A stretch of 63,066 bases of DNA, filler included. It is 8 parts of 8 records of this genome, joined end to end, with 100 filler letters (N's around TTAATTAATTAA, not from the genome) between each part and the next. Parts side by side here need not be neighbours in the genome. Positions count along the whole stretch, not along the records: positions 25,604 to 34,109 come from SRR31156797_42031; 7 more parts are not named here. One strand, given 5' to 3'. Position 1 is the first letter of the stretch, and each line of letters begins with the position of its first letter. Position numbers and translations under genes: made by a program. The notes under the pieces were generated by a model. The model was not told the origin of the DNA, ran no database searches, and saw only the letters and a list, made by a program, of their open reading frames with translations. Shown piece by piece: positions 1,984 through 57,710 of the stretch.

Positions 1984-2121
1984 GTTATGTCCTTTATTTG
2001 TCTATAAGTGGATTAGTGGATTTTTAGTATTTAAAAGGAGAAGGTAAACTCAGGTTGGATAGTCTTTCACCTGAGACGGTACACTCTATTGTTTCTTGTG
2101 CCTGATACGCTTTAATTCATT

Positions 2122-2799
2122 TCAGGAGAGTTTTGCCCTTGCTGATTCCAGAGCGGTTTTACCTGCTATCTTTTCTGCAAACCTGTCTGCAAGCATCTCC
2201 AGTTCATTTTCGGACCGGTTCTTAGTAAAGCTCATTAGTGCCAGTTGTCTAAGTAGTGGGGTCCTGTTATTGTAACGAAGATGCCATACTTCATGTGCAA
2301 GAATGGCTTTTAGTTCCGTTTCGTCAACCAGCTCCAGCATTCCAAGGGATAGGAAAATAGCCTTTCCGGAAGCAAATGCCCTGGGTACTGCGGAATCAAA
2401 ATAATACACATCGGACTTTGTTCCAAGACCATTGACAAAGTCCTGAGGCCAGTCCATAATGTCTGTTATTGGCCTGGCATCATATCTTTTGATTAGTACC
2501 TTATAATATACTCTTGGAAGGAGAAGGATGATTGCAGTGGACAGTGTCACATAGCCCAGATATATTTCAATACTTAACATCTGGCTGCACTGCATTGCAT
2601 ATACGATTGCTGCGATAGCAGAAATAATTAACAACTGGCCTGCCACAAAGGATGAAAGTCTTGTCACTGGCTTACTTGTCTTGAAATATATGCTGAACAT
2701 CAACAAGGCCAGAATTACAGTGATGCCTATAAATGGGAGAAGAGTGGACTCATTAATGCAGGCGATATAGCATTCCATTTCATCCTGTATGGAGAACAT
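2122..2799 (-). CDS. Membrane Zn-metallopeptidase, M48/M56 (BlaR1-like, no penicillin-sensor domain)
   Basis: Three N-terminal TM segments, PRAF, ELKAILAHEVWH (HExxH), E-x-x-A-D (EMLAD); directly downstream of the BlaI-family gene. Confidence 0.82.
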   Translation of the reverse strand: MFSIQDEMECYIACINESTLLPFIGITVILALLMFSIYFKTSKPVTRLSSFVAGQLLIISAIAAIVYAMQCSQMLSIEIYLGYVTLSTAIILLLPRVYYKVLIKRYDARPITDIMDWPQDFVNGLGTKSDVYYFDSAVPRAFASGKAIFLSLGMLELVDETELKAILAHEVWHLRYNNRTPLLRQLALMSFTKNRSENELEMLADRFAEKIAGKTALESARAKLS

Positions 2800-5274: not shown

Positions 5275-5769
5275 ATGAATAGAAAATTGGTCTTTGTTTC
5301 TTTGTTAACAATAATAGTATCCCTTTCAGTGTTGGGATGCGTTGGTTCCAGCGATTCTGCATCTGCAGGCCCGTCTGAATCTGTAGTAGGGACATGGATA
5401 GAATCAAAGGTAAGCGGAGATACTGTATCCATACCTGTAAGTTCAGTCGAACACTATACCAATGTCCATTCAAACGTGAATACTGAACTTGGCGAAGTTG
5501 CTATTATGGCTTACATACTGAATGACGAGATCATCATCAGGTCCAATGTATGCCCACCATGCCGTTCAATAGGATTCACTCTGGAGGAGGACATTCTTGT
5601 TTGTGATTCATGTGGTACGGTTTTTGATGCGCCCACAGGTAATGGTATCAGTGGAGGCTGTGTTGCCTATCCTAAGGAGAGTATTCCATACACAATATCA
5701 GACGGGAATATTGTCATGAAACTGGATGATGTTGTGACTGCACACAAGAAGACTGAGGAGATATATTGA
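5275..5769 (+). CDS. Predicted membrane-anchored Cys-rich (Fe-S/metal-binding) lipoprotein, DUF2318-like
   Basis: Lipobox-like SVLGC; CPPC..GF..LVCDSCG..F..GGC pattern; co-operonic with an FtsX-type ABC transporter. Confidence 0.72.
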   Translation: MNRKLVFVSLLTIIVSLSVLGCVGSSDSASAGPSESVVGTWIESKVSGDTVSIPVSSVEHYTNVHSNVNTELGEVAIMAYILNDEIIIRSNVCPPCRSIGFTLEEDILVCDSCGTVFDAPTGNGISGGCVAYPKESIPYTISDGNIVMKLDDVVTAHKKTEEIY

Positions 5770-6022
5770 ACATCTCCTGCGTTTTAATCTTTGATGAATG
5801 AGGCTTCTTTGCCTTATTCTCTATTTTTTATTTCTGATTAGTTTTCAATAAAAATGATCGCTGTCTTGAAGAGACAATTCTTTCTTCATTTAAAAAGCAA
5901 AGCTTTTATCCTATAAATATAATTTTAAATTTATCTAATTTGATGTTGTTTATTCAATATGATGCAGAGTGTTTCTCGCAGGAACAGAAAACAACAAAAA
6001 ATTAAGCTAAAGTGGTGACCTC

Positions 6023-7000: not shown

Positions 7001-7100
7001 NNNNNNNNNNNNNNNNNNNNNNNNNNNNNNNNNNNNNNNNNNNNTTAATTAATTAANNNNNNNNNNNNNNNNNNNNNNNNNNNNNNNNNNNNNNNNNNNN
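7001..7100. other. Artificial contig spacer
   Basis: N44-TTAATTAATTAA-N44, stops in all six frames; composition changes across it. Confidence 0.98.
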
Positions 7101-18317: not shown

Positions 18318-18417
18318 NNNNNNNNNNNNNNNNNNNNNNNNNNNNNNNNNNNNNNNNNNNNTTAATTAATTAANNNNNNNNNNNNNNNNNNNNNNNNNNN
18401 NNNNNNNNNNNNNNNNN
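18318..18417. other. Artificial contig spacer
   Basis: N44-TTAATTAATTAA-N44. Confidence 0.98.
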
Positions 18418-23755: not shown

Positions 23756-24206
23756 TACGATCCTCCTTTAATCAAAGAGTACGAAAGGCGCGCCTTTGTA
23801 GATCAAAGTTTGACCACGTCAACATTTTCACACGTACTTTATGTCCCCCCAATCTCCATCTCACGTTTCCCAAAAAAAGATAATCGATCTGCAGCAATAC
23901 AATTACCTCACCAAAAACACCACTGTTCACCATGCTTATAACAACATCATTTTAAGCTGCTCTGATTCATAAATCTTCCTCGCCCATCAGTCGAAGGGAT
24001 AATGAAAAAGAAAGTTCTGCAGTTATCAAGTATGGGTAACATTCGTGTTTTTACCGGCCCCACCTTGATTTCACAAAAGTGGCTCGGCTATAATTATTGA
24101 GATGGTTGGATACTAGCAAAAAAATGCAACAGAAATTTGACAAAATATTTTCAGGAACGCATGATACGACTTTGTGGTTCATTCACTCAATAATAAGGAG
24201 TCTAAA

Positions 24207-25503
24207 ATGCTTAATCGCTTTTCTGTAAAAGGCAGAATGTTTCTCATAGTAGGTGCAATATTATTCCTCTTTGCTGTCATGGTATTTTTCACCATGCAAC
24301 TCGGTAAAAAAATAGAGGATTTAGGGGTCAGCAAAACCGGTGAAATTATGCTGGCCGACCAAAAAGCGAAGCTCAAAGTGGCGGGGCACTCAATAGCACT
24401 CGCACTGGGAAATACTATTTCTAAAGCAGGCACCCTCGACGAAAAAATAGAAATAATTCGTCAAGATATCGATAACATCCGATTTGAAGATGATAAATCC
24501 GGTTACTACTTCGTATACAACAAGACAACAAATATCGCCCTCCCTCCCAAAAAAGAATTCCAGGGCAATGACTTGGGAGGATTAAAAGATAAAAATGGGG
24601 TGTATCTTGTCCGGGATCTGTATAAAAAAGCTTCGGCCGGTGGAGGGTTTGTTGAGTATATCTGGGCCAAACCGCAGGCTGGAGATGTGCCAAAATTAAG
24701 CTACGCTGAAATGATACCCGGAACAGACATGTGGGTTGGTACGGGTGTTTACCTGGACAACATAACCCAAAACCAGGCTGCAATGGCATCCGAGATTTCA
24801 AGTCGTGTCAAAAAAGAGCTTATTACTATGCTTATAATTTCAGGAGCAATTTTTCTTGGTATAATTACCCTCAGCATGGTAATCGCCCTCGGCCTTGTAA
24901 GTCGCCTCAAAATGATGGTCGTTAACTTCCAGGATATAGCAGAAGGTGAAGGCGATTTAACAAAACGTATAGATATCAAGTCAAACGATGAAATCGGTGA
25001 ACTGGCGGGGTGGTTCAATACTTTTATCGAAAAATTACAGGGCATTGTTAAACAGATCGCGGAGAACTCCACAAATGTAAGCTCCAGCTCCAACATGCTG
25101 ACAGGAATATCAAAAAATCTTTTAGAAAATTCTGGAGATACTTCACAGCGCGCAACAAACGTTGCCGCTTCCTCCGAAGAAATGAGTGCGAATTTAAGTA
25201 GTGTAGCTGCAGCCATGGAAGAGTCAGCGACCAATGCCAACATGGTTGCTGTTGCTGCAGAAGAGATGAGTTCCACAATTAATGAGATTGCTGAAAACGC
25301 AGAAAGAGCGCGAGGGGTTTCTCTTGATGCTGTTAATCAAGCGAAGGAAGCTTCTGTTTTTATGGACGAACTCGGTACAGCTGCCAATGAAATCGGTAAA
25401 ATGACCGAAACTATTACCGAAATATCTGAACAGACTAACCTGCTGGCGTTAAATGCAACCATTGAAGCTGCACGAGCAGGAGAGGCGGGCAAGGGTTTTG
25501 CTG
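24207..25503 (+). CDS. Methyl-accepting chemotaxis protein (Cache-HAMP-MA), 3'-truncated
   Basis: [28 protein letters not shown] Cache; [36 protein letters not shown]. Confidence 0.95.
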
Positions 25504-25603
25504 NNNNNNNNNNNNNNNNNNNNNNNNNNNNNNNNNNNNNNNNNNNNTTAATTAATTAANNNNNNNNNNNNNNNNNNNNNNNNNNNNNNNNNNNNNNNNN
25601 NNN
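25504..25603. other. Artificial contig spacer
   Basis: N44-TTAATTAATTAA-N44. Confidence 0.98.
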
Positions 25604-25885
25604 GTTCAGATTGTCCATGAATTGAGTCAGGTCCGCATTTAACTGGTTGGACACGGCTTTCAGTTCGGCCCGGGTGCTCTTTCGACGGTCCGAATTGGAA
25701 GATTCCAGGTCCGCCTTGAATTGACCCAGATCGCGCCTCAATTCTTGACCCATCTCGTTGCGGTCTTTTTCGAATTCACCCAACATCTCTTCGGTGTTCT
25801 CCCGCAGCTTTTCTACCCCTTGCACCCTCTCCTCATAGGCATTGGCAATCTCTTCCGCCAGTCTTCTCATTTGGTCTGCTAACAT
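25604..25885 (-). CDS. GvpC-like acidic amphipathic helical protein, 3'-truncated
   Basis: AAGGAGG SD; all-helical with periodic L..F (MLGEF, DLGQF, DLTQF); lies in the gvpA gene run. Confidence 0.55.
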
Positions 25886-26082: not shown

Positions 26083-26715
26083 TTAATGGCCCGGGACCAC
26101 CGTTTGCCATTGGCTCCGGACCTTGTCTCGCACCATGGCCAGTTCTTCCAGCATCCGGCCGAACTGGTTGTCCCTGACGCCCTGTTGCGCCCTGAGAGAG
26201 TTGAGCATGACCTTGAAGTCCCTGACCCTTACGGATTCTCCCTTTTCCAGGAGTTTTTTAAGGGCGACCTTCAGTTCTTCCTGTTCAATCTGGATGCGTT
26301 TAAGAACCTGGATAATCCCTGTTTCCCGTTCCTTTTGTCGTTTCAGGATGTCTTCCCTGATGGCTTCCATATCCTCCAGCCTGGAACAGCCCCCTGAGGC
26401 GATGACTTTTCTGAGCCGGTCAACCATTCCCATCTCTTCTTCCTGGAAACGGTTGAAGACATTTTTCGCCTCCTTTTCCCGGGATAGCCGTCTTTCCGTG
26501 AGATCGGCCATCATGCGGTCAAAGTCCTTTTTCCTGAGGCTTTCCGTTCTGGCAAGGTTATCTCTCAAACGAATGATCATGTCTTCCAGTTCCGTTTGAA
26601 AGCTTCTGAGAAAATGATAGGACTGTTCCATCAACCCGTTTACGGTTTTTATTCGCATCTCATAGGAATCTATGATGCTGTAAGCCAGTGTTTTCAGGTC
26701 TTCTCCGGTTCCCAT
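26083..26715 (-). CDS. Gas-vesicle-cluster coiled-coil hypothetical protein
   Basis: GAGGTG SD; 210 aa charged helical protein directly downstream of gvpA; N-terminus resembles that of the next gene. Confidence 0.75.
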   Translation of the reverse strand: MGTGEDLKTLAYSIIDSYEMRIKTVNGLMEQSYHFLRSFQTELEDMIIRLRDNLARTESLRKKDFDRMMADLTERRLSREKEAKNVFNRFQEEEMGMVDRLRKVIASGGCSRLEDMEAIREDILKRQKERETGIIQVLKRIQIEQEELKVALKKLLEKGESVRVRDFKVMLNSLRAQQGVRDNQFGRMLEELAMVRDKVRSQWQTVVPGH

Positions 26716-26960: not shown

Positions 26961-27164
26961 CTATGCGGTCGCGGTGAGTCCCACGGCCTCGGCATATTTC
27001 AGATAAGTTTCAACACCGGCGACCACGACCCTTGCTTCCACGGCCAGGAGTTCGATCCCCACCAGGGAAACCCTTGCCCATGCATCGACAACCACGCCCT
27101 TGTCCAGAATTCTGTCAACCACCTCGGCCAGACTTGAAGAAGCCATTGCTTTTTCCATTGCCAT
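26961..27164 (-). CDS. gvpA: Gas vesicle structural protein GvpA
   Basis: [56 protein letters not shown], the canonical GvpA sequence; AAAGGAG SD. Confidence 0.97.
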
Positions 27165-27602: not shown

Positions 27603-28523
27603 TTGGACACGTCGGTTTCTCAAATGGACAGTTTGCCTCAATTCAAAGACGGTCTGGCGGATATTCGAAAAGACCGGGCCGGTCTTCGGAATCTGGTGGC
27701 GTATATCCATCATGAGCGCGGGATTGATTTCAGCGGTTATATGGAATCCACCCTCGCCCGCAGGATCGCGGTTCGGGTCAATGCCCGGGGGGCGAAAAGC
27801 TTTGCCGGATATGAGAAGGTCCTGGAAAAAGATCCGGCGGAGTATTCGCGGCTCCTGGACCATCTTACCATCAATGTGAGCCGGTTTTTCAGGAACAGGG
27901 GTGCCCTGGAAACCCTGGTGCGGGTGTTGCTTTCCCTTCGCAAAACCGATCCGCATCGGCCCATCAGCATCTGGAGCGCCGGATGTGCCACGGGTCAGGA
28001 GCCTTTTTCCATCGCCATGCTTCTGGATAGGCAACTGGGGGATTCGGCGCGGGAGGGCGTCAGCATACTGGCCACGGACATTGATGGGGAAGCCCTGAAA
28101 TCTGCCCGGAAAGGGGTGTTCGGCAAAGAACAGGTTCAGGATGTGCCGTCGCAAATGCTGGAACAGTATTTTGACGGGGGAAAAAGCGGCTATCAAGTCA
28201 AAGAGCGCTTGAGGCAATGGGTTGATTTTCAGCACCATAACCTTTTATATGACAAACCGCCCGGGGCCGTGGACGTGGTGGCGTGCCGCAATGTATTGAT
28301 CTATTTTCGAATACCCGTTCAGGTACAGGTGGTTTGGAATTTCCATGGGGCCCTGAAAGCGGGGGGGGTTTTGCTCCTGGGGCGATATGAGATGCTGGGT
28401 CGGGAAACGCGGCATGGATTCAGGGCCGTGGATTTCGACGCAAGGTTGTATGAGAAGCAGGCTGTGAACGGAGGACGGAAGTGGGCGACCAATGGCCAAA
28501 CTATACCCATTACCCTATATTAA
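27603..28523 (+). CDS. cheR: CheR-type protein-glutamate O-methyltransferase
   Basis: GIDFSGY..TLARRI, LTINVSRFFRN, IWSAGCATGQEPFSIAM, ILATDID, CRNVLIYF; exact start uncertain. Confidence 0.93.
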   Translation: MDTSVSQMDSLPQFKDGLADIRKDRAGLRNLVAYIHHERGIDFSGYMESTLARRIAVRVNARGAKSFAGYEKVLEKDPAEYSRLLDHLTINVSRFFRNRGALETLVRVLLSLRKTDPHRPISIWSAGCATGQEPFSIAMLLDRQLGDSAREGVSILATDIDGEALKSARKGVFGKEQVQDVPSQMLEQYFDGGKSGYQVKERLRQWVDFQHHNLLYDKPPGAVDVVACRNVLIYFRIPVQVQVVWNFHGALKAGGVLLLGRYEMLGRETRHGFRAVDFDARLYEKQAVNGGRKWATNGQTIPITLY

Positions 28524-29142
28524 ATTCAAGTCATTGCGCGGGAAGACCCTGCATAAAACCCGCAACCTCCACCGCCTTCCCCCCGAAAAGGTGGTGGTCA
28601 TGGGCGCTTCCGCCGGTGGCCTTGACGCCCTGTGTACCGTTATGAGAACCCTGCCGGATGGATTGCCCCTGACCGTTCTGGTTTTGCAGCACCTGAGGGA
28701 GGGGCATAACACCCACCTGGCCGATATCCTCGGCCGCAGTACCCGTCTGGCGGTACGTGAGGCGGAACCGGGGGTGCTTCTGGAAAAGGGCGTCGTATAT
28801 GTGGCCGTTCCCGGAAAACACCTGCTGGTCCGGGACCGACGGATTGTTCTGGGAAACGGACTTCCGGTGCGGCATGTGAAGCCTTCCGTGGACGTGCTCT
28901 TTAAATCGGTCGCCGCCATTTGGGGACCCGCCGTCATGGGGATTATCCTTTCGGGTACGGGGAGCGACGGCGCCGCCGGATGCCGGGCCGTAAAGGCGGC
29001 GGGCGGCGTGATCATGGCCCAGGACCCGGGCGAAGCCGCCTTTTCCGGCATGCCCGAGGCCGCCGTGAAGACCGGCTGCGTGGATCATGTGCTGCCCGCG
29101 GGGGAGATCGGGGAGAAGATTGCGGCGTTGACAGTCCAATAA
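28492..29142 (+). CDS. cheB: CheB-type methylesterase without a receiver domain
   Basis: GASAGG (Ser), LQH (His), KPSVDVLF, LSGTGSDGA (Asp), GMPEAA; no N-terminal REC. Confidence 0.92.
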   Translation: MAKLYPLPYIKFKSLRGKTLHKTRNLHRLPPEKVVVMGASAGGLDALCTVMRTLPDGLPLTVLVLQHLREGHNTHLADILGRSTRLAVREAEPGVLLEKGVVYVAVPGKHLLVRDRRIVLGNGLPVRHVKPSVDVLFKSVAAIWGPAVMGIILSGTGSDGAAGCRAVKAAGGVIMAQDPGEAAFSGMPEAAVKTGCVDHVLPAGEIGEKIAALTVQ

Positions 29143-29163: not shown

Positions 29164-30225
29164 ATGGCCAAACCCAAAACACCCATGCAGATCCGAGCGG
29201 CCAGGCACCTGGCCCTGCTTCGGAAGACCACCACCAATGTGACCCAGAGCAAGTTGCCGCCGCGCACCTCCAAACATTTGAAGTTGTCCCATGGGGTGCC
29301 GGGCGGGCGGTATATCACGAGGCTGGACAAAGGGGAGTGGGAGGAGCGCGTGGACCAAATCCTCCGTAACCTGGAGGAGAACCGCTACAGCCGAAGCAAC
29401 GCCCTTTATTTCGCCCTTTCCAACGTGAAAACGCTGCTGAATGAGATGGAGAAGAAAAAGGCCGATTTGGAGACCTACATGGAGGAACTCCAGGCCTCCA
29501 ACGAAGAGATGAGGGCCAGCAACGAAGAGATGCGCATCCTTCAAAACGAGGCGGAGCGAACCCATGAGGACACGGAAAGTATCCTTGCGGCGGCGCCCGT
29601 GCTTTTTGAAACACCTTTGAAGCGTATTAAAGGGGATGCCAGCGCCCTGGCGGAAGCCTGTGGGGATCGGTTGGACCCGGAAGAACTTGAACGGCTTTTC
29701 GCCATGGCGGAAGAAGCCGCCCTGATGGAAAAGAGGCTCGGCGGATTAACGGACTACTGGCGCATGGATGTGGAAGGGGGCGCTTTCGAGACAGTGGATT
29801 GTGAAGGCATCATGGGCCGGGTGGAAGAAGACCTGGAGGAGTTGATCAACACCGCCGGCGCCGAAATCACCCATGACCCCCTTCCGGCGGTGAAAGGGGA
29901 TGGGGATCAGATGACCCTTCTTTTCACGATTCTGCTGAATCGGGCCCTCTCTCTGCCCGGGGGCCATCCTCTCCGCATTCACGTGGCGGCGAGCCCCGTT
30001 GAGGCGGAAGATACGCCTGAGGTGGAAAAGGGGTGGGCCTTCCGGGTGGAGGACAACGGCGCCGACATTCCGGAAGAAGACCGGGAACGGATGTTCAAAG
30101 TGAACCCGACGGGGACCATGGATCCGGCCGTTGCCTGGCGCATCGTGAGCCGGCACGGCGGAGGCATGACGGTTGCGCCCAAAGCGGGCGGGGGGAATGT
30201 GTTTGAATTTTCCCTTCCTGCCTAG
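29164..30225 (+). CDS. Degenerate histidine kinase (pseudokinase) with unknown N-terminal domain and methyl-accepting coiled coil
   Basis: Aligns along its length with the next gene but has Val at the H-box His, Arg at the N-box Asn, DNGAD at G1 and no G2; carries EELQASNEEMRASNEEM. Confidence 0.8.
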   Translation: MAKPKTPMQIRAARHLALLRKTTTNVTQSKLPPRTSKHLKLSHGVPGGRYITRLDKGEWEERVDQILRNLEENRYSRSNALYFALSNVKTLLNEMEKKKADLETYMEELQASNEEMRASNEEMRILQNEAERTHEDTESILAAAPVLFETPLKRIKGDASALAEACGDRLDPEELERLFAMAEEAALMEKRLGGLTDYWRMDVEGGAFETVDCEGIMGRVEEDLEELINTAGAEITHDPLPAVKGDGDQMTLLFTILLNRALSLPGGHPLRIHVAASPVEAEDTPEVEKGWAFRVEDNGADIPEEDRERMFKVNPTGTMDPAVAWRIVSRHGGGMTVAPKAGGGNVFEFSLPA

Positions 30226-30240
30226 GTTGGCCATTGACCC

Positions 30241-31476
30241 ATGACCAATATGGTTAAGCTGTTTCAAAAACAGACGGGTAGAAGACCCTGGGACCGTCGA
30301 GGGCGGACGGAAGATTCAACCCCAATCGTGGAACCGGTTGTGGAGGCCGGTGCTCCTTTTTCCATGGGAGGGACGGCATGCAGATCCCCGGGAGAACCGA
30401 AAAAGCCCCGGGAGATCCGACGGCACACGGATCTGGAAATCCTGGAACGGACCACCACCAGTGTAACCCACAAGCGGTTGCCCCCGCGCACGGGAAAGAA
30501 TCTCAAACACTGCCATTTCCTGAAGGGGGGACGGGAGATAGCCCGCCTGGGCAAACACCCCTGGGAGGAACGGGTGGCCGGGAATCTGCGAACCCTTGAG
30601 GCGAACCGTTTTGCCCGGCACAACGCCATTTACCATGCCCTGGCCCATATCTCGGGACTGCTGGGCGAAGCCGAAACCCGGGAATCGGTGCTGCACGCCA
30701 CCTCCGAGGAGTTGAAGCGTACGAGCGAGGTACGGGAGCGGTATGCCCGTGAACTGGCCCGGGCCAATGAGGATCTTGAGCAGTTTGCGTCGGTGGCATC
30801 CCATGACCTGCAGGAGCCCCTGAAAAAGGTGATCCGGCATGCGCGACGCATTTTGAAGTCATCCGGCGCCGACCTGGATCCCGAAACCGAAAAAGACCTG
30901 GAGACGGTCATGGATGAGACCGTCCACATGCAGGCACTTATCAAGGCGGTTCTGGCCTATGCCCGGGTGGAGACCGTAGGGGAAATCGAGGAAACGGCAG
31001 ACTGCGATTCAATCCTGGACCAGGCCTTGAGCAACCTGTCGGCTTCCCTGGAGGAATCTTCGGCAAGAATTGTTCGGGATCCCCTGCCGACCCTGAAGGG
31101 GGATTTCGAACAGTTGATCCGCCTGTTTCAGAACCTGGTGGGGAACGCACTGAAATATTATGACCCGGAAAAGGCGGACCCCTTTGTCCACGTCTCCGCG
31201 AAACGGATGGAGGAGGCATCCGTCCCCATGCCCGATTCCGCCGGAAATGCCGGGTGGCTGTTCCGGGTAAAAGACAATGGGGTCGGTATTGACGAGGATT
31301 TCCAGGATGATATATTCAATATGTTCATACGTCTCTACACCCGGGATGAAATCCCCGGCGAAGGCATGGGGCTCGCCATCTGCAAGCGGATCGTAAAACG
31401 GCACCGGGGCGAAATCTGGGTGGAATCGGAATACGGAGTGGGGTCGAGGTTTTATTTTACCATTCCGGACCAGTGA
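30241..31476 (+). CDS. Cytoplasmic histidine kinase with the same unknown N-terminal domain
   Basis: ASHDLQEPL, FQNLVGNALKY, DNGVGI, GEGMGLAICKRIV; no TM. Confidence 0.92.
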   Translation: MTNMVKLFQKQTGRRPWDRRGRTEDSTPIVEPVVEAGAPFSMGGTACRSPGEPKKPREIRRHTDLEILERTTTSVTHKRLPPRTGKNLKHCHFLKGGREIARLGKHPWEERVAGNLRTLEANRFARHNAIYHALAHISGLLGEAETRESVLHATSEELKRTSEVRERYARELARANEDLEQFASVASHDLQEPLKKVIRHARRILKSSGADLDPETEKDLETVMDETVHMQALIKAVLAYARVETVGEIEETADCDSILDQALSNLSASLEESSARIVRDPLPTLKGDFEQLIRLFQNLVGNALKYYDPEKADPFVHVSAKRMEEASVPMPDSAGNAGWLFRVKDNGVGIDEDFQDDIFNMFIRLYTRDEIPGEGMGLAICKRIVKRHRGEIWVESEYGVGSRFYFTIPDQ

Positions 31477-31501: not shown

Positions 31502-32716
31502 ATGACCCAAAAAGAGATCAGACTTCTCCTTGTGGAAGACAACCCCAAGGATGCCCGCGACCTGGAGAAAATGCTCGGCTGCTGCAAGAGGGGACCCTAT
31601 GCCGTTGAACTCGCCGACCGTCTGGCGACGGCCTACCGTAAACTGGCCGGCGGTTCCTTTGATCTGCTGCTTCTGGATCTTTTTCTGCCCGAGAGCAAGG
31701 GGCTCGGCACCCTTAAAAAGGTGAAGGCCAAGTCCCCCGGAACGCCCATTGTGGCCCTCACCCGCTTTGACGATGAACAAACCGGGATGAATGCGGTGCG
31801 CGAAGGGGCCCAGGACTATTTGGTCAAGGGCCAGTTCGACGGTAATCTGCTGGAGCGATCCATTTATCATGCCATCGAGCGGCACCGGGGGGAAGAGGCC
31901 CTTCGATTGAAAAATATCGAACTGGAGGTGCTCAACCAAAAACTCATGGAGGCGGACCGCCTTAAATCGGTGTTTGTGGCCAACATGAGCCATGAACTGC
32001 GTACCCCCCTTAATTCCGTCATCGGCTTTACCAGCATTATCCTCAAAGGGATGTCGGGCCCCGTGACCCCGGACCAGAAAAAGCAGTTGGCCATGGTGAA
32101 GAAAAACGGCCAACATCTGCTTCAGCTCATTAATGATGTGTTGGATGTATCCAAAATCGAGGCGGGAAAGATCGAGCTTTCCTTTGACCGATTCCTGCTC
32201 TCGGAGCTGTTAACCGAAACCCTTGCCGGCTTCAGGCCCGAGCTGGATCGGAAGAACCTGACCCTGACCACAAACCTTGACATCGATCCGGAAATGATTT
32301 CGGACCGGATCCGCCTCAAGCAGATTCTCCTGAACCTGACCAACAACGCGGTCAAGTTCACGGACCGGGGTGGCATAACCATTGCCGCGTGTCATTTGAA
32401 GAATCAAAACGGCGGGACCGATTCTTTACCAATGCCCAATAACCGATCCCCCATGACCCATAAGCATTTGGTTCAAATTTCCGTGGCGGATACGGGGATC
32501 GGAATACGGGAGGAGGACATGGATAAACTTTTCATCCCCTTTCATCAACTGGACATGTCCATGACAAAGACCCACCAGGGAACCGGCCTGGGACTCCATC
32601 TTTCCCAAAAAATGGCCCATCTCCTGGGGGGACACATTACGGCCCGGAGCCTGCATGGAAAGGGGAGCCGCTTTACCCTGACCCTTCCCGTGAAACATGA
32701 GGAGGGCAGCCCATGA
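31502..32716 (+). CDS. REC-HisKA-HATPase hybrid kinase
   Basis: LLVEDN..LLDL..GAQDYLVK receiver; MSHELRTPL; NNAVKFT; DTGIGI; GTGLGL. Confidence 0.93.
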   Translation: MTQKEIRLLLVEDNPKDARDLEKMLGCCKRGPYAVELADRLATAYRKLAGGSFDLLLLDLFLPESKGLGTLKKVKAKSPGTPIVALTRFDDEQTGMNAVREGAQDYLVKGQFDGNLLERSIYHAIERHRGEEALRLKNIELEVLNQKLMEADRLKSVFVANMSHELRTPLNSVIGFTSIILKGMSGPVTPDQKKQLAMVKKNGQHLLQLINDVLDVSKIEAGKIELSFDRFLLSELLTETLAGFRPELDRKNLTLTTNLDIDPEMISDRIRLKQILLNLTNNAVKFTDRGGITIAACHLKNQNGGTDSLPMPNNRSPMTHKHLVQISVADTGIGIREEDMDKLFIPFHQLDMSMTKTHQGTGLGLHLSQKMAHLLGGHITARSLHGKGSRFTLTLPVKHEEGSP

Positions 32717-34109: not shown

Positions 34110-34209
34110 NNNNNNNNNNNNNNNNNNNNNNNNNNNNNNNNNNNNNNNNNNNNTTAATTAATTAANNNNNNNNNNNNNNNNNNNNNNNNNNNNNNNNNNN
34201 NNNNNNNNN
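34110..34209. other. Artificial contig spacer
   Basis: N44-TTAATTAATTAA-N44. Confidence 0.98.
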
Positions 34210-35716: not shown

Positions 35717-36759
35717 GAGCGTGGCTTCGATCTTGAAAAACGGCTTGGATAAAAGACCGGCCATGGAAAAGGAAGGCGACAGCCCGCCCCTCAGACACAC
35801 CAATATCAGGGGGGCCGAATATTACTCGTCACAGAAAGGAGAAGAAAATGCTGACCCATCCGACAATGGACAAACTAAAAGCCATGAAGCTTTGGGGCAT
35901 GCCAAGGCTTTGGAGGAGCAGACAGCCTCTTCAGAGGCCAGCTCCCTCTCATTTGAAGAACGCCTCGGGCTGATGGTGGACCGGGAGATGGACGAGAGGC
36001 AAAACCGCCGCATGGCCGCCAGACTCAGAAAGGCGAAATTGCGTTTGCCTGCCTGCATGGAGGATATTGATTACCGCCACAAAAGGGGTCTGGACAAGGC
36101 CCTGATGCTGTCCCTGGCTTCCTGCTCCTTTGTCCGAAAAGGACAAAATGTCATCATCACCGGATCAACGGGCGTGGGTAAAACATACCTGGCCGTGGCC
36201 CGGGGAGACGGCCGCTATCCCAAAGTCATGGCCGCCTACGCCAAAGCCGACCTGCTGGTCCTGGACGATTGGGGGCTTGACCGCATAAGCAGAGGGGAGC
36301 GCCTCGATCTGCTGGAATTGCTTGAAGACCGATACGGCTTGAAATCAACTCTTGTCGCCGCCCAGGTAACCATCGATCAATGGCACGAGATCATAGGCGA
36401 CCCGACTCTGGCCGACGCCATCTTGGATCGGCTGGTCCACAACGCTTACAAAATCCAACTCAAGGGAGAATCAATGCGAAAAAAATACGGCGGACTGACA
36501 TGAAACAGGAAGAAGATTTTCTACCGAATCCCAATACGAGGCTTGGAGTCCTCTCTGACCGCTTTGCGGCTTTATATAAAAAACAAGAAAAAAGAAGAGG
36601 CAAAAGCTGCATCGCCTTACCGACCCAACTTGATTTGGAAGCGCATTTGTATATATGATTACTAAAACAGCGTCGCTCCGCTCCGAAGAGTGGCCGGAAT
36701 GACCGGATCAGCCGGCCGGATTAAATCGGAACCACTGGCCACATTCAACGGAATACGCA
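35702..36759 (+). mobile_element. Decayed IS21-family element (istA C-terminal stub, broken istB, intact right end)
   Basis: SYRSVASILKNGLD..HTNIRGAEYY is an IstA C-terminus; right end has three ~22-bp GGCC..CGGA repeats (36690-36759) ending GGAATACGCA. Confidence 0.88.
35848..36503 (+). pseudogene. istB: istB helper ATPase pseudogene
   Basis: True start MLTHPTMDKLKAMKLWGM is out of frame with AKALEEQ..LSFEERLGL; Walker A GSTGVGKTYLA is joined directly to VARGDG (apparent internal deletion); LVLDDWG, LADAILDRLVH, GESMRK. Confidence 0.88.
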
Positions 36760-40550: not shown

Positions 40551-40650
40551 NNNNNNNNNNNNNNNNNNNNNNNNNNNNNNNNNNNNNNNNNNNNTTAATT
40601 AATTAANNNNNNNNNNNNNNNNNNNNNNNNNNNNNNNNNNNNNNNNNNNN
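40551..40650. other. Artificial contig spacer
   Basis: N44-TTAATTAATTAA-N44. Confidence 0.98.
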
Positions 40651-40716: not shown

Positions 40717-43700
40717 TTATTTAATTATCATCTTACCTAATGCGGTCGCTGCGGATTTTTCAGGATCATACATACCTTCCACTTGCACTGGGGGCACCTT
40801 GAACTCCCCACGGGTCACGGCGCGAAGCAGGGTCACGTTTTCGACCTTGCCCTTGGCGGGTACGTCGGAGAAGACCAGCACCCGGTCATCACGGATATCC
40901 ACGTGATCCGGGCGTACATTGCCCTTGGCGATCCACGGCAGATCTTCGCGGGTGGCGAGTTTGGTGTTCTCCGGTTCCAAACCGGACGGCAGCAGACAGC
41001 TTATGACCGCATTGGATACGGGCTTGGCTGTGGAACTGACCACGGTGCGCATGGCTACAAGCTGACCCTGCTGGATATCGTTGATGTCGAGCGGTTCACC
41101 ATCGCGGGTCAGGAATTCGCGGGTAATTTCTAAACCGTTGGAATACGGCTTCCAGTTTTCAATGGTCGGAACAGCACGGCTGTTGATAGCCCAGACAAAT
41201 GTTCCTTCCTTAGGAGCGGAGTCCAACTCAATGGAAAGGGGAGTCTCGCCTTTGACGGTCACCTGTGCGGTGCCGTTGGCTTCGAAAGCAGCCAGTTCTT
41301 TGTCGCCACTCATGATCTTTCCGGCTGGATGCAGTGCATACTTGGTCTGTCCATAGAAAGTCCCCAAAGCAAGGAATCCGAGACTGTTGTCCTGAGTCAC
41401 ATTGCGACCGTTGTCAGCCATAAGATTGTATAGCTTGTTAGCAATCTGCGGGATGGCGTCGTCCTTGCGGTCAGCTTCCATACGCACCAAAAGTTCAAGG
41501 GCGAGGTCACGGACCTCGGAACTGAAGTGCTGATCCGTGTCCTTGCCCTTTAACGGGGCAGGCTTAGCCGAGAGCAGCTCTCGGTAAGCGGCCATGTCTC
41601 CGGAAGCAGCAAAGGCTCCGGCCAGCAGGGTCAGGGATAGTTTGTCCATGTCCGCTGCTTTGTGCTCACGCAGGTAGTTCATGGGACCGTGCATAACCTT
41701 GCCGGAACGGGCCAGCACATACTGGGCGTAACAGGGCAGACGGTAGGAGTAGCCGTCACGAATGGTGTCAGAATAATTGTTGGCAACAAAACGTTTGGCC
41801 CGGTTGAGGAGCATGCTGTCCACCTGATAACCGGAAATGGCGGCCTGTTGTAGGAAGTGCAGCACGTAGACCGAAATCCACGGTTCGGAACGATGTCCGC
41901 CGGGCCACATGGCAAAACCGCCGTCGGAAGTCTGCATCATGGACAGCCTGCTTAAGGCGGACTGTACCATATATTGCGGGGATTCTTTTTCAAATGATTT
42001 AGGCGAAAGTTCGCGGGCCAGTTCCGGGAATTTCAGTAACGGAAAGGCCTGCGATACGGTTTGCTCTGCACATCCGTATGGATAGTGAAGCAGGTAATCG
42101 AGCTTTCCGGCAAGACGCAGCATGGGCTGGTTACCGATGATGAGCGTACGCTCGGCAGTACCAATACGCATGTTTTCAAGTTTTGCTGGCAATGCCGTTG
42201 ATTTATCTTTGATGAAACCGGACTCGGATGAACGCTGCACAGGCAGTGCTGCACGGATGTTCAGGTCGATGGAAGCCCCGGCTTTTTCATTGTTTCCTTC
42301 AGCTGAGAATTTGAAGTTTACCGGGCCGAGGTCCGCTTTGGTTTGAGTCTTGAAGAAAGCGGTCTTCTGCCTGCCTTGCGGAATTATGAAACCTTCAAAA
42401 CCCATTTCAGTCTTCAAGGACCCGCTGGTGGATACTGAGATATTGAAGGTTCCATCTTCCGGGGTGTCGTTGCGTACACTTACCGGAATGTCGAATATTT
42501 CATCAGGTGCCAGAAAGCGGGGCAGGGTCGGGGTGACCATGAGCGGTGAGCGCACGGTCATGATTTTCGAGCTTGAACCGAATTTCCTGCCGTCACTGAC
42601 CACAGCCATGATGCGCAGGGCTCCACTAAACTCGGGAATCTTGGCACTGAATTCAGCTTTACCATTTTTATCCGCAGTAATGATTCCGGACCAGAAAGTG
42701 ACCGGTTTGACCCTGCGGATAGCGGAACTTCCTGCAAACTGCTTCATCATGGCCAGTTCCATGCCGCCGCCTGCAAGAGCTTTATTTATGGGGCCTGCAT
42801 CGGGCATGAGAAGTCCGAAGGTATCGGACCAGCGTACACCTAGGGCGCGTTTGGCGTAGAAGTACTCAAAGGGGCTGGGTGTCTTTTGCCCGGAAAGGCG
42901 CAGGATGCCTTCGTCCACAGCGGCAATGGTCAGCTTGGCACCGGGCTTTGTCTGGACCTGCAAGGCCACGGTCCGTTCTGGACGGGTGGTCTTGGGGCAG
43001 GTGATGTCGATACCGAGCCTGTTGCTTTCGCGGTCCACAAACAAGGGAACTGCGCCGACAGCCCGCGCACTGGAGCCTGCCTCAAGCTTGTTCACAGAGC
43101 GGATCAGTGTGGCGGTTACGTAAGCATTGGTACTGATACCTTTTTGTACCGGAACCTTGATGGTGGCGGTGTTGCCCTTGATTTCAAGAGTTTTGGTCCA
43201 GCGGATGGAATTATCTTCAATGGCTACCAGCATACGTCCCGCAAAAGGCGTGCGGATCTGGTACTCAGCCATTTCTCCGGGCTTGTAGTCGCCCTTGCGG
43301 GTGGGGATAATCTCAAGGCGGGCCGGATTTTCCAATGCCCACGGGGAATAGCCCCAGCCACCGCAGAAGAAGTCCGCCTGTGCGGAAACACCGGACTGGG
43401 GATCGCTGAGGATTACCCGATAGCTGCCGAATTCCGGCGGGCTGACCTTGAATGAACCGGTCGCGTCCTTGGCGAAAATTTCGCGGGTCTCCAGCAATTG
43501 CGGGTCGCGTTCAGTTACATACTTATATGAACCGGAAGGGGTGGTCCGGACAATGGTCTGCCAGCGGTCGCGGTATAGCTTCATAAGCAGCTTTCCGGCC
43601 TTGGTCTTTTCGCCTTGCGGGGTCAGAGTCACGTAGTCGAGTTTGACGGATTCACCTTGTTCGTAGCCTTGCTTGGTCAGTTTTTTCAGGCCGGGATAGA

Positions 43701-46116
43701 ACTTGGAGATAAGTACCGGGTCGACTTTGGAAGCAGTAACTCCGCGTCCACCGGTTTCACTGACCCGTGCGGTCATCCTTGCCTGAATCGCAGAGTCAGA
43801 CTTGAGACTTGCCGGAATCGTAGCGTTGAATGATAACTTGCCGGATTCATTCAGCTTGGCCTCAGTCTTTAAAATCTCGCGGGGCTTGAAGGAGCTTGCA
43901 TCGGTGTTGAAACGGTAAGCTTCATATCCTTCAGGATTAAATATAGCAGGCTCAAGCATGACCATTGCAGATACCGGAAGGCCTTCAGCCGGGGGACCGA
44001 ACAGGTACCGTCCTTCCACTTCGAAATTCAAATCGTGTCCAACAGCAGCTGGCTTGGCGGTAATGATTTCCGCGCTGATGCGGTCGGGCATGAAGTCTTC
44101 AACAGAATAACGGAAGTTGCCGATCCGTTCCTTCCCGGCCAGCAGTTTGATGTTGAACTGTCCGGTGGGTGAGTAGTCGGGGATGGCTCGTTTGAATTCA
44201 ACCATGCCTTGGTCGTCGGTATGGACGGTGCGTCTGAAAAGTTCGCGTCCGCGCTGGTCGGAGTAAAGCAGTACCACGGGCATTTTTTGGGGTGGTATAA
44301 GCTTGCGGTCACGGACCACAGCTACGCCTTTGACTGTTTCACCGGGACGGTAGAGGTTGCGTTCCCCGTAGGTAAAGGCAGTCAGCCCCCTGGGTGAGAG
44401 CCGCTGTCCTGCAATATCAAGTCCGGAGCGGTCGGTGGCGAAACGGTCCATGAGCATGAAGGTCATGTCGTTTTTACGGGTGATCACAGCCATGTATGGA
44501 CGGCCGAGGTCCTTGCGTATGTCTCTTTTCTTGAGCACCAACATGCCCCGGGAGTTGGTGGTCCCGGAGCCCATTATCTGGTTGCGGTTACTGATCAGCT
44601 GTACTTTAGCGTCAACAACGGGCTTGAGGTCTGAGAGTGAAGAAATCCAGAACAAGGTTTCTTCATCGCCCTGCTTGGCGACCACACCGAGGTCGGTGAT
44701 CATGACCCAGCGTTGTACACCCCTTCCCTTGCCCGGAATTGTTGCTGCGATGCGGTAAAGTCCTTTGCCGCCTTTGGCAATGAAGCTTTTTATGGACAGG
44801 GGAGTAGTTGTCTTAATGTTCTTTTTACCCGAAGTCTTAATTTTACCCGAGAAAATGCGATTACCCAATGCTGCGGAGATTCCTCCGCCATAGGTATTAG
44901 GATCAAAGGCCATGTATCCGTAATGGGTAAAGAGCGAAAAAAGGTTGTTGGGAAACACGCGGTCAACTGTGATGCTTACATCGCGGGTGTTGACGGTTTC
45001 AATGCCGAGAGTTTTGTAACCCGATTCAGATAGAAACATACCTGCGGAAGAAAAGTCGGCGGTAGGTTCAATATCCGGGATGTGGATGTTTTCAGTGATT
45101 GTTTTTTCAAGCAGGGCCCCGTCTGCTGCAGTCAGACCTTTTCTTAGGGTGATGGAATATTTTTTACCCGGTTTGAAGGGGCCGGAAAGGATCAGTTTTT
45201 TACCGGATGCGGCAGCAGAAACATTGATGGCAGGCTTGATGCTTAGCATTTCAAGTCCCTGCGCCGGGATGACCGGACTGGAAAAGCCCAGCTCCACCCT
45301 TGCCCCGGAAAGGGAACTGAAAGCCTTGTATCCAGAATAGCCGAGCACCGGATCGAAAACTATTTCGATTTTCTTTTCATAATCTTTGCCCAGTACCATG
45401 GCCCTGCGTCCATCCGGCAGATCTTTGTTTATCTTGAGAACATAGGTTTTCGGCTCGATTTCTTTTTCAACGGGTGAACTCACAAAACGTTGATAGTAAT
45501 CATCGTAATTGGTGGTAATGCTTAAGGGGATTTCTTTGCCGTCGGGTCCGGTCAGGGAAAGATTTTTGAGTGTGTTTTCCGGGGTTACATAATTGCTGAA
45601 ATTAATATGCCCTTCAATGCGCACCTTGCGCCCTTGCCCTGCGACAGGCTCGGTGCGCATCCCGATTTCCTTAACCCCGAAACTTCCGGTCTGTACGGAA
45701 AAGGTCTTCTCACCTGTAAGTTTTTGCCCGTTGAGCAGGAAATTTTCCGGCTTAAGTTCAATGGTGAAGTGGGTTTCGCCTTTAAAAGCAGGGTCGGCGG
45801 TAAAGCGTAGTGCATAGGGGTTGATCCAGCGCCATTCCCCTTTCACTTTCGGGGTGATAGTGGCCGGGGCTTTTTTCAGGGCATAGGAGGGGGCTTCCGG
45901 TCCGATGGGCATGTCAAAGGCAAGCAGTAATTGCGAATAGCCCTGACTGTCGAGGCTTACGTCAGTTACTTTAACCCCTTCCCCGGAATCCATTCTAGCA
46001 GATACTGATTCGTGTTTTGCTTTGAGAAGTCCCGCTGCCTGAATGATGCAGATCATGAGCAACAGGGCGATGATGATATTCTTTTTATCTTTGAACGGGG
46101 TAGGTCCTCTGTCCAT
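40717..46116 (-). CDS. Bacterial alpha-2-macroglobulin (YfhM-like)
   Basis: 1799 aa; ERNLYRPGE, AAVDEGIL, PEFSGALRIMAV, LPRFLAP, thioester YPYGCAEQT, DIRDDRV, RAVTRGEF..EGMYDP. Confidence 0.96.
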   Translation of the reverse strand: MDRGPTPFKDKKNIIIALLLMICIIQAAGLLKAKHESVSARMDSGEGVKVTDVSLDSQGYSQLLLAFDMPIGPEAPSYALKKAPATITPKVKGEWRWINPYALRFTADPAFKGETHFTIELKPENFLLNGQKLTGEKTFSVQTGSFGVKEIGMRTEPVAGQGRKVRIEGHINFSNYVTPENTLKNLSLTGPDGKEIPLSITTNYDDYYQRFVSSPVEKEIEPKTYVLKINKDLPDGRRAMVLGKDYEKKIEIVFDPVLGYSGYKAFSSLSGARVELGFSSPVIPAQGLEMLSIKPAINVSAAASGKKLILSGPFKPGKKYSITLRKGLTAADGALLEKTITENIHIPDIEPTADFSSAGMFLSESGYKTLGIETVNTRDVSITVDRVFPNNLFSLFTHYGYMAFDPNTYGGGISAALGNRIFSGKIKTSGKKNIKTTTPLSIKSFIAKGGKGLYRIAATIPGKGRGVQRWVMITDLGVVAKQGDEETLFWISSLSDLKPVVDAKVQLISNRNQIMGSGTTNSRGMLVLKKRDIRKDLGRPYMAVITRKNDMTFMLMDRFATDRSGLDIAGQRLSPRGLTAFTYGERNLYRPGETVKGVAVVRDRKLIPPQKMPVVLLYSDQRGRELFRRTVHTDDQGMVEFKRAIPDYSPTGQFNIKLLAGKERIGNFRYSVEDFMPDRISAEIITAKPAAVGHDLNFEVEGRYLFGPPAEGLPVSAMVMLEPAIFNPEGYEAYRFNTDASSFKPREILKTEAKLNESGKLSFNATIPASLKSDSAIQARMTARVSETGGRGVTASKVDPVLISKFYPGLKKLTKQGYEQGESVKLDYVTLTPQGEKTKAGKLLMKLYRDRWQTIVRTTPSGSYKYVTERDPQLLETREIFAKDATGSFKVSPPEFGSYRVILSDPQSGVSAQADFFCGGWGYSPWALENPARLEIIPTRKGDYKPGEMAEYQIRTPFAGRMLVAIEDNSIRWTKTLEIKGNTATIKVPVQKGISTNAYVTATLIRSVNKLEAGSSARAVGAVPLFVDRESNRLGIDITCPKTTRPERTVALQVQTKPGAKLTIAAVDEGILRLSGQKTPSPFEYFYAKRALGVRWSDTFGLLMPDAGPINKALAGGGMELAMMKQFAGSSAIRRVKPVTFWSGIITADKNGKAEFSAKIPEFSGALRIMAVVSDGRKFGSSSKIMTVRSPLMVTPTLPRFLAPDEIFDIPVSVRNDTPEDGTFNISVSTSGSLKTEMGFEGFIIPQGRQKTAFFKTQTKADLGPVNFKFSAEGNNEKAGASIDLNIRAALPVQRSSESGFIKDKSTALPAKLENMRIGTAERTLIIGNQPMLRLAGKLDYLLHYPYGCAEQTVSQAFPLLKFPELARELSPKSFEKESPQYMVQSALSRLSMMQTSDGGFAMWPGGHRSEPWISVYVLHFLQQAAISGYQVDSMLLNRAKRFVANNYSDTIRDGYSYRLPCYAQYVLARSGKVMHGPMNYLREHKAADMDKLSLTLLAGAFAASGDMAAYRELLSAKPAPLKGKDTDQHFSSEVRDLALELLVRMEADRKDDAIPQIANKLYNLMADNGRNVTQDNSLGFLALGTFYGQTKYALHPAGKIMSGDKELAAFEANGTAQVTVKGETPLSIELDSAPKEGTFVWAINSRAVPTIENWKPYSNGLEITREFLTRDGEPLDINDIQQGQLVAMRTVVSSTAKPVSNAVISCLLPSGLEPENTKLATREDLPWIAKGNVRPDHVDIRDDRVLVFSDVPAKGKVENVTLLRAVTRGEFKVPPVQVEGMYDPEKSAATALGKMIIK

Positions 46117-47509: not shown

Positions 47510-47609
47510 NNNNNNNNNNNNNNNNNNNNNNNNNNNNNNNNNNNNNNNNNNNNTTAATTAATTAANNNNNNNNNNNNNNNNNNNNNNNNNNNNNNNNNNN
47601 NNNNNNNNN
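47510..47609. other. Artificial contig spacer
   Basis: N44-TTAATTAATTAA-N44. Confidence 0.98.
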
Positions 47610-57610: not shown

Positions 57611-57710
57611 NNNNNNNNNNNNNNNNNNNNNNNNNNNNNNNNNNNNNNNNNNNNTTAATTAATTAANNNNNNNNNNNNNNNNNNNNNNNNNNNNNNNNNN
57701 NNNNNNNNNN
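57611..57710. other. Artificial contig spacer
   Basis: N44-TTAATTAATTAA-N44. Confidence 0.98.

Follow-up and report, generated by a model that had tools for sequence, protein, structure and literature searches.

Proteins of the methyl-accepting coiled-coil (MAC) type form a category attributed to Wuichet and Zhulin (2010, Sci Signal 3:ra50) in the accessible part of a preprint (bioRxiv 10.1101/2022.05.07.491037), where the MAC2 class comprises those associated with separate CheB and CheR, and where MAC systems are described as experimentally uncharacterized "in any respect". According to excerpts of other published work, the CheR-type enzyme RsbM of Bacillus cereus methylates the signaling helix of the histidine kinase RsbK and controls its output (PMC4574943), and the C-terminal pentapeptide (NWETF type) of chemoreceptors is a tether for CheR and CheB (PMC7698151, PMC8609364). 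Here, we analyze a locus in a window of 63,066 nucleotides (the whole stretch of DNA under study, filler included). Two adjacent genes in this window, designated pk1 and hk2, encode kinase-like proteins that begin with related segments of about 90 residues. A preliminary description, made from the sequence alone, had taken this segment for a new basic, cytoplasmic sensor or docking domain.

Our best reading is that the segment is an N-terminal module peculiar to one family, a rare subgroup of MAC2-type cytoplasmic histidine kinases. Judged by its genes, the locus quite probably encodes a CheR/CheB-modified kinase system. The more specific idea, derived from synteny, is that the arm at the start of the segment is a CheR/CheB docking site that recruits or positions the enzymes on the kinase coiled coil; this is offered tentatively, as somewhat less probable than its contrary. 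The features of the two genes are as follows:

29164 to 30225, plus strand: pk1, a His-less pseudokinase of 353 aa (Pfam: HATPase_c only), with AAGGAGG 8 nt before the ATG
29164 to 29334, plus strand: N-terminal basic arm of pk1, aa 1-57, with the conserved columns KxP, TTT.V, LPPRT.K.LK..H and GGR.I.RL (41 members)
29335 to 29448, plus strand: helical part of the pk1 segment, aa 58-95, with W59-E60 at the helix start, N79 and A84
29482 to 29520, plus strand: two tandem heptads of pk1, EELQAS-N-EEMRAS, found by motif scan and matching the chemoreceptor methylation consensus
30241 or 30364 to 31476, plus strand: hk2, an intact histidine kinase of 411 or 370 aa (Pfam HisKA 2.4e-08, HATPase_c 9.6e-24)
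30394 to 30678, plus strand: N-terminal segment of hk2, with 47/90 residues identical to the pk1 copy

In pk1, the segment is followed by the heptad coiled coil, by helices resembling a dimerization and histidine phosphotransfer (DHp) domain without the phospho-acceptor His, and by a degenerate ATPase domain. The order in hk2 is segment, degenerate heptads, HisKA and HATPase_c. The start of hk2 is uncertain (30241 or 30364); because the segment begins within residues 1-23 in all 42 relatives described below, the family alignment favors the ATG at 30364.

The N-terminal segment and its family

The two copies had previously been aligned without gaps (29170-29439 with 30394-30663) and credited with 47 identities in 90 residues. 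A recount returned exactly this number, and the motifs listed at the time (TTTxVT..LPPRTxKxLKxxH, GGR, WEERV and LExNRxxRxNAxYxAL) all fall in identical columns. When one copy was shuffled 10,000 times, the mean was 6.5 identities (standard deviation 2.4) and the maximum 17. The whole proteins are paralogs (BLASTP, 35% identity over 366 columns, E 9e-66). Identity amounts to 51% (47/92) in the N-terminal 92 residues, 29% in the coiled coil, 25% in DHp and 36% in the ATPase domain, the segment being more conserved between the paralogs than the kinase cores (51% versus 25-36%), in line with the earlier description. It is also the most similar part of the paralog pair in both genomes that have such a pair (51% and 45%). 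At the DNA level, 165 of 270 positions are identical and third positions are conserved least. Nei-Gojobori analysis of the two copies gave a nonsynonymous rate (dN) of 0.44 and a synonymous rate (dS) of about 1.0, which is near saturation, with a ratio of about 0.4. By these sequence measures, the copies are therefore old and under constraint.

The segment could not be placed in a described family. It had been reported to lack a match to PAS, GAF, REC, HAMP or Cache, and none of these appeared in the Pfam, NCBIfam and PDB-sequence searches. Pfam yielded no family over either copy at E≤1 and no match over the first ~100 residues of 23 relatives (23/23, E≤1e-4); NCBIfam yielded none over the segment at E≤0.01; and a profile of 41 copies had no match among PDB sequences (best E 0.3). 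Foldseek found no match in the PDB for the segment model at E≤10. The best VIA-align result (Z 5.5) consisted of generic long helices and hairpins and covered residues 34-112 only, the arm itself not being confidently modeled, and the best look-alike in the Protein Atlas scored 0.82, which is chance level. In the literature searches, nothing turned up about the N-terminal segment, a His-less MAC paralog or the location of cheR/cheB beside gvp genes; the original MAC paper lies outside their coverage and could affect how novel the segment is.

When 1.84 billion representatives were searched exhaustively with a profile, 42 proteins scored E≤1e-3, of which 20 reached E≤1e-10, and in all 42 the segment is located at the extreme N-terminus, starting at residues 1-23. 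About 15 further members, named "PAS domain S-box-containing protein" or unnamed, were found in a second search with a 41-sequence profile; no CheB or CheR domains were found in the second-search members (20 longer homologs). The alignment of the segment is nearly gap-free, relatives extend down to ~25% identity, and conservation among 41 members runs along the whole segment, including the whole arm. In hk2 numbering from M42, E68 is found in 41/41 sequences, R57 in 40/41, H51 in 39/41, H49 in 24/41 and Cys at position 50 in 10/41; H51, R57 and N87 are at least 90% conserved, and a near-invariant Asn lies in the helix (39/41). Across 53 sequences (pk1 numbering), E60 is invariant, and W59, N79 and A84 are at least 90% conserved. 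On this sequence evidence, the segment is a real conserved family and no leftover.

The family is rare. Among 401 genomes sampled from the order it occurred in 2, and among 401 from the phylum in 3 (the query genome is in both counts); the three named locus hits all come from Desulfobacteria or Desulfobacteraceae metagenome-assembled genomes (MAGs). A word-indexed homolog search (region 40-150, near lengths) found no relatives, and the family surfaced only in the exhaustive profile search. At the level of genome contigs, a search with a two-sequence alignment found no related loci; narrower alignments gave 3 and 2 loci. Gene context could be read for nine loci: the one in the window and those designated L001, L002, L003, L004, L005, L011, L034 and L035, the last of which is a remnant.

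Structure predictions do not model the segment, earlier described as a domain, as a compact one. For the hk2 copy alone, AlphaFold with the 41-sequence alignment gave a mean local confidence (predicted local distance difference test, pLDDT) of 82; residues 1-65 are almost without regular secondary structure (pLDDT 65-80), and two helices follow the arm (66-86 and 88-111). In the model of full-length pk1 (pLDDT 86), the first 55 residues form only short helices of low confidence (pLDDT 48-57), and a single helix runs over residues 58-165, from W-E through the remainder of the segment and the heptads into the first DHp helix. Hydrophobic residues in the helical part have a 3-4 spacing around the near-invariant Asn. 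As modeled, the segment is thus a basic arm of about 55 residues plus the conserved start (~40 residues) of the signaling helix, with no globular fold. The low confidence of the arm would fit a segment that becomes ordered only on a partner.

These data leave part of the earlier interpretation standing: the segment is basic and cytoplasmic and matched no known family in the searches made. It is not compact in the models, and a role as a sensor is not supported. If the segment were a small sensor in the cytoplasm, binding a metal or small ligand via His-x-His, Arg, Glu and Asn, this would agree with the conservation of H51, H49, Cys50, R57 and E68 and with the lack, in Pfam, of any other input domain in pk1, hk2 and several relatives. 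Yet neither a compact fold nor a pocket was predicted, the searches made revealed no similarity to a known sensor family or structure, and many members already carry one to four PAS domains. We regard a sensor as very unlikely.

The His-less paralog and the methylation-consensus heptads

The two kinase-like proteins differ in their catalytic cores. Where kinases have SHDLQEPLK, pk1 has PVLFETPLK, and the phospho-acceptor His is gone (P-V-L-F versus S-H-D-L). Its ATPase domain has Arg at the N-box Asn, DNGAD for DxGxG (G1) and TMDPA for GxGL (G2), and the lid is 9 residues shorter. pk1 therefore does not have the H-box His and the intact N, G1 and G2 boxes of a classical HisKA histidine kinase. 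There are eight distinct His-less proteins: pk1, P0001, P0004 (apparently the L005 protein), P0005, P0007, L003pk, L004pk and the L034 protein, the last of these read by eye. The clade has its own signatures, Y-W after DHp helix 2 and A-W-R-I-V in the ATPase domain. ATP-binding motifs are retained in most His-less members and lost in pk1 and its closest relative, P0001. The His-less genes in the related loci are:

L003, 5846 to 6958: His-less gene
L004, 4250 to 5413: His-less gene, with no second family gene before the contig end
L005, 2536 to 3696: His-less gene, with a REC-kinase gene directly after it
L034, 2082 to 3185: His-less gene, with the contig ending soon after

In a tree of kinase cores, seven His-less proteins form one clade (support 100/99) and hk2 pairs with the kinase of L003, a Desulfobacter MAG (96/89). 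Since pk1 groups with the His-less clade and hk2 with the L003 kinase, the duplication predates these lineages; by this sequence comparison, it is older than the split from the Desulfobacter MAG lineage and not recent. The preliminary description had proposed that the segment stayed conserved while one kinase core decayed. The conservation holds, whereas pk1 belongs to an old His-less clade and its core did not decay recently after duplication.

The age of the pair also bears on the idea that a recent tandem duplication left the segment behind as a neutral remnant that has no separate function. It is true that pk1 and hk2 are adjacent paralogs. However, 42 relatives share the segment, down to ~25% identity and with invariant positions, the core tree places the duplication before the lineages, and dS is about 1.0. 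An absence of homologs together with a dN/dS near 1 had been named earlier as the mark of such a leftover; what was found was a family of 42 and a ratio of about 0.4. The family, the core tree and dN/dS together refute this explanation, and its probability is practically nil.

Most members carry heptads of the EELQATN type directly after the segment. At least one EExxA[ST] motif is present within 60 aa after the segment in 37 of 51 members, and the motif occurs 95 times in the 3060 aa after the segment versus 7 times in 18920 aa elsewhere. The two heptads of pk1, EELQAS and EEMRAS, lie one heptad apart and match the chemoreceptor methylation consensus; the methylation sites 297, 304 and 311 of Tsr are likewise seven apart (PMC1079850, in excerpt). 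In both gene pairs, that of the window and that of L003, the His-less protein has two consensus heptads and the kinase has none. Under the reading favored here, labor is divided in these two genomes: the His-less paralog (pk1) retains the consensus heptads, and the true kinase (hk2) has lost its own and retains the arm.

In a rival reading, the segment is a dimerization and register-setting cap, in which the helical part sets how two long helices pair and the arm is wrapped around the other chain. Genomes with a pair would then form heterodimers, with the methylated His-less subunit controlling the kinase subunit. Several observations agree with a cap: the continuous predicted helix that starts at the invariant W-E, the 3-4 hydrophobic spacing with the near-invariant Asn, the position of the segment as the most similar part of the paralogs in both genomes, and its retention in hk2-type proteins without consensus heptads. 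On the other hand, most members are single-copy in their locus (L001, L002 and L011; His-less protein only in L004, L005 and L034), and heteromer specificity is therefore not the general role of the segment. A cap also leaves unexplained the strict cheB/cheR linkage described below and the absence of the segment from CheB-CheR fusions with the same heptads. We consider it rather unlikely.

Gene neighborhood and the proposed circuit

The window joins at least eight contigs end to end, and its GC content jumps between pieces (41-61%). Seven artificial joiners of the form N44-TTAATTAATTAA-N44 are located at 7001-7100, 18318-18417, 25504-25603, 34110-34209, 40551-40650, 47510-47609 and 57611-57710, and genes that flank a joiner are not true neighbors. 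Both kinase genes lie on the contig at 25604-34109 (SRR31156797_42031). The only methyl-accepting chemotaxis protein (MCP) gene in the window (24174-25503) and the PAS-kinase and IstB genes beyond 34210 are on separate contigs and are thus no neighbors of pk1 and hk2. The contig carries, in this order, a weakly GvpC-like open reading frame (ORF), a coiled-coil ORF, gvpA, cheR, a receiver-less cheB, pk1, hk2, a REC-HisKA-HATPase kinase gene, a single REC gene and a cut REC-PAS gene. The neighbors of pk1 and hk2 are:

25604 to 25885, minus strand: coiled-coil ORF downstream of gvpA, with a sub-threshold GvpC repeat match (E 0.0022, 18.1 bits versus a cut-off of 18.8)
26083 to 26715, minus strand: coiled-coil ORF downstream of gvpA, no family match
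26961 to 27164, minus strand: gvpA-family gas vesicle protein gene, divergent from cheR (Pfam Gas_vesicle 1.1e-15)
27603 to 28523, plus strand: cheR methyltransferase gene (Pfam CheR 1.5e-54, CheR_N 2.6e-11)
28492 to 29142, plus strand: cheB, methylesterase domain only and no receiver domain (Pfam CheB_methylest 4.5e-58), ending 21 nt before pk1
31502 to 32716, plus strand: REC-HisKA-HATPase hybrid kinase gene, downstream in the operon (Pfam); the same gene follows in L003 and L005
32713 to 33084, plus strand: single-domain response regulator gene (Pfam Response_reg 1.7e-29), syntenic in L003 and L005
33096 to 34109, plus strand: REC-PAS protein gene, cut by the contig end (Pfam); L003 holds a REC-PAS-PAS-HK-REC gene (HK, histidine kinase) at the equivalent position

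A link to CheR and CheB had been guessed at in the preliminary description, and synteny backs it strongly. A receiver-less cheB lies directly upstream of the first family kinase gene in all eight intact loci (the window, L001, L002, L003, L004, L005, L011 and L034), and in 7/7 loci whose contig extends far enough, cheB is itself preceded by cheR. Across 7 orthologs of CheB, the Ser, His and Asp columns are invariant. In L003, the order is the same for every gene (cheR, cheB, His-less protein, kinase, REC-kinase, REC and REC-PAS-kinase-REC), and no MCP, CheA or CheW gene was found within its 14.3 kb. In a CheR tree, the family-linked CheRs group together (89/81) and are separate both from the fused CheRs and from the 9 stand-alone CheRs sampled. 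A sister relationship of linked and fused CheRs was considered and dropped, as it cannot be read from this tree of three clades without a root.

Next to cheR, a gvpA-family gene was found in all six testable loci, i.e., the window and the five listed here:

L002, 3 to 392: gvpA-family gene
L003, 3757 to 3918: gvpA-family gene
L004, 1598 to 1951: gvpA-family gene
L005, 413 to 766: gvpA-family gene
L034, 214 to 555: gvpA-family gene

L004 additionally has GvpK, and both L003 and L004 have ArsA-like ATPases. This constant neighborhood suggests that the circuit controls gas vesicles. Since the gene stands beside cheR wherever this could be tested, control of gas vesicles, and thus of buoyancy, is the likely candidate for the output, a proposal that we hold with a little less than even confidence.

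The mechanism that we favor can be outlined as follows. The arm would dock or position CheR and/or CheB at the heptads without a covalent bond, doing the job that is done by covalent fusion in the CheB-CheR fusion proteins (MAC1) and by the C-terminal pentapeptide in some chemoreceptors. Methylation of the coiled coil would tune kinase output to the downstream REC-kinase and REC relay, and the output would be gas-vesicle (buoyancy) control. Docking is favored by the location of the segment ahead of the heptad array, the strict linkage to cheB and cheR, the absence of the segment where the enzymes are fused, and the lack of a compact arm fold. A complex of CheR, CheB and residues 1-135 of pk1 was predicted with a score of 0.00; alignments were unused and the partner fold was uncertain, and nothing is inferred from it.

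A number of points weigh against this mechanism. Docking and glutamate methylation are predictions for all members, and the conserved neighborhood is silent on which part of the kinase the enzymes touch. By analogy with chemoreceptors without a tether, the heptads alone might suffice. hk2 and its orthologs keep the arm though they have no strict EExxA[ST] motif, and a structural or dimerization role accounts no less well for retention of the arm in such proteins. A ligand or metal site is an equally good reading of the invariant His, Arg, Glu and Asn. For gas vesicles, the link is one of adjacency only, and the contexts come from the nine loci only. In L035, a truncated, stop-ended remnant of 91 aa of the segment (5620-5895, minus strand) has no kinase after it and no cheB upstream, and a fused cheB-cheR gene (1-2200, minus strand) lies on the same strand 3.4 kb downstream of it. 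Finally, an approximately unbiased (AU) test does not reject the orthology tree of the N-terminal segments (p 0.18; also 0.11 and 0.059). In the two genomes with a pair, the arms of paralogs share 28/57 and 27/57 identities within a genome versus 19-22/57 across genomes, and the N-terminal tree groups hk2 with pk1 (90/93). This likeness speaks for docking, but because the AU test is not significant and only two genomes are available, it is only a hint, as it is for concerted evolution of the paired arms, either by gene conversion or by co-evolution.

The neighborhood also contains other partners on which the arm might dock: the REC-kinase encoded downstream, the lone REC protein, or a protein of the gas vesicles, for example GvpA. 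Downstream, the window, L003 and L005 have REC-HK and REC genes, and L001 and L011 have a REC gene; the gvpA-family gene is adjacent in every testable locus; and the arm is basic and has no confident placement in the models. REC domains, however, normally dock on the DHp helices of two-component systems, which pk1- and hk2-type proteins have. Moreover, the downstream genes vary by subgroup (REC-HK versus REC plus KaiB), whereas cheB and cheR are constant, and contact with a REC or gas-vesicle protein is unsupported. Docking on such a partner is unlikely.

A further model concerns gas-vacuolate Desulfobacteria. They may possess a receptor-less, CheA-less buoyancy circuit in which CheR adds methyl groups directly to the coiled coil of a soluble kinase or pseudokinase pair and a constitutively active CheB removes them, both enzymes being tethered by an arm of ~55 residues, and in which a REC-kinase/REC relay sets gas-vesicle formation. 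In this complete form, the model is doubtful. If true, it would amount to "taxis by floating", a chemotaxis-style memory without chemoreceptors. MAC systems could serve to show that glutamate methylation brings about adaptation outside chemoreceptors as well, and this subgroup offers small, soluble, separable parts: CheR and a CheB that lacks a receiver, a His-less subunit that would accept the methyl groups, the kinase subunit and a short conserved arm. With these, one can ask what CheB and CheR target when a receptor is absent and how the enzymes reach their target. The gvpA neighborhood offers a concrete phenotype (floating) and suggests how sulfate reducers might regulate buoyancy, a topic on which the literature searches returned nothing.

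Several other features of these loci were observed. In the PAS-containing subgroup (L001 and L011), REC and KaiB-like genes lie downstream (L001, 2581-2970; L011, 1601-1924 and 185-493, both on the minus strand), and a CheR/CheB-linked kinase beside a clock-type protein is an unexpected pairing. The CheR proteins of L003 (3924-5159), L004 (1992-3026) and L005 (696-1841) have a conserved extra N-terminal stretch of ~60-120 residues with no Pfam match, which is not found in the CheR encoded at 27603-28523. In L002, a TumE-family toxin gene (578-1003, minus strand) is inserted between gvpA and cheR. The contig at 25604-34109 ends inside an H-box (…GGIAHDFNNIL), and the same motif occurs in the kinase of the next contig (34226-35716); the assembly break at 34109 is probably due to a repeat common to paralogous kinases. 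Other contigs of the window carry an IS21-type IstB helper gene (35721-36503) and a gene for a bacterial alpha-2-macroglobulin of 1799 residues (40717-46116, minus strand).

Comparison with known systems

The locus fits the description of MAC2, a category already in print, and as a whole the system is not new. A coiled coil with chemoreceptor-like methylation sites is found in pk1 and in 37/51 members, and hk2 is without the strict motif. A histidine kinase module in the same protein is present in hk2 (HisKA and HATPase_c) and in part in pk1 (HATPase_c only), and stand-alone CheR and CheB are encoded directly upstream (27603-28523 and 28492-29142). The likeness thus consists of a protein's own coiled coil with receptor-like sites, separate CheB and CheR, and no MCP, CheA or CheW in the operon. 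Relative to MAC2 as described in the accessible part of the preprint, the segment, the His-less paralog clade and the gvpA link are features of the present family. As far as our searches reach, with the original MAC paper outside their coverage, there is no description of the arm at the N-terminus, of the conserved His-less partner or of the constant presence of gvpA nearby.

The family is distinct from chemoreceptors in that no MCPsignal (PF00015) domain was matched in pk1, hk2 or relatives. It is also distinct from the MAC1 proteins, which we take to correspond to KEGG K13924 and which have the architecture CheB_methylest-CheR_N-CheR-coiled coil-PAS_10. Fusion proteins in genomes of the same taxonomic class carry the same EELQATNEEL-type heptads ahead of PAS and kinase modules. 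In them, the enzymes are fused to the coiled coil, and the ~170 unannotated residues between CheR and the heptads are not this segment; hhalign against the fused protein gave a probability of 0.1 and uncovered no hidden copy. Conversely, no CheB_methylest or CheR domain was found in the kinase polypeptides of pk1, hk2, 23 relatives and 20 longer homologs.

RsbK and RsbM provide the experimentally shown case of methylation of a kinase signaling helix. They differ from the present system in that RsbK is a membrane kinase with CHASE3, HAMP and GAF domains and no N-terminal arm, RsbM is not paired with an esterase, and sigma-B is the output. A parallel to the proposed role of the arm is the pentapeptide tether, likewise a short, non-globular segment that recruits adaptation enzymes to nearby methylation sites. 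The pentapeptide follows a flexible linker, and its 5 residues form the extreme C-terminus. The W-E in NWETF resembles the invariant W-E of the segment, which is no more than a lead. In the family described here, by contrast, the conserved stretch comprises about 55 residues and is located at the N-terminus.

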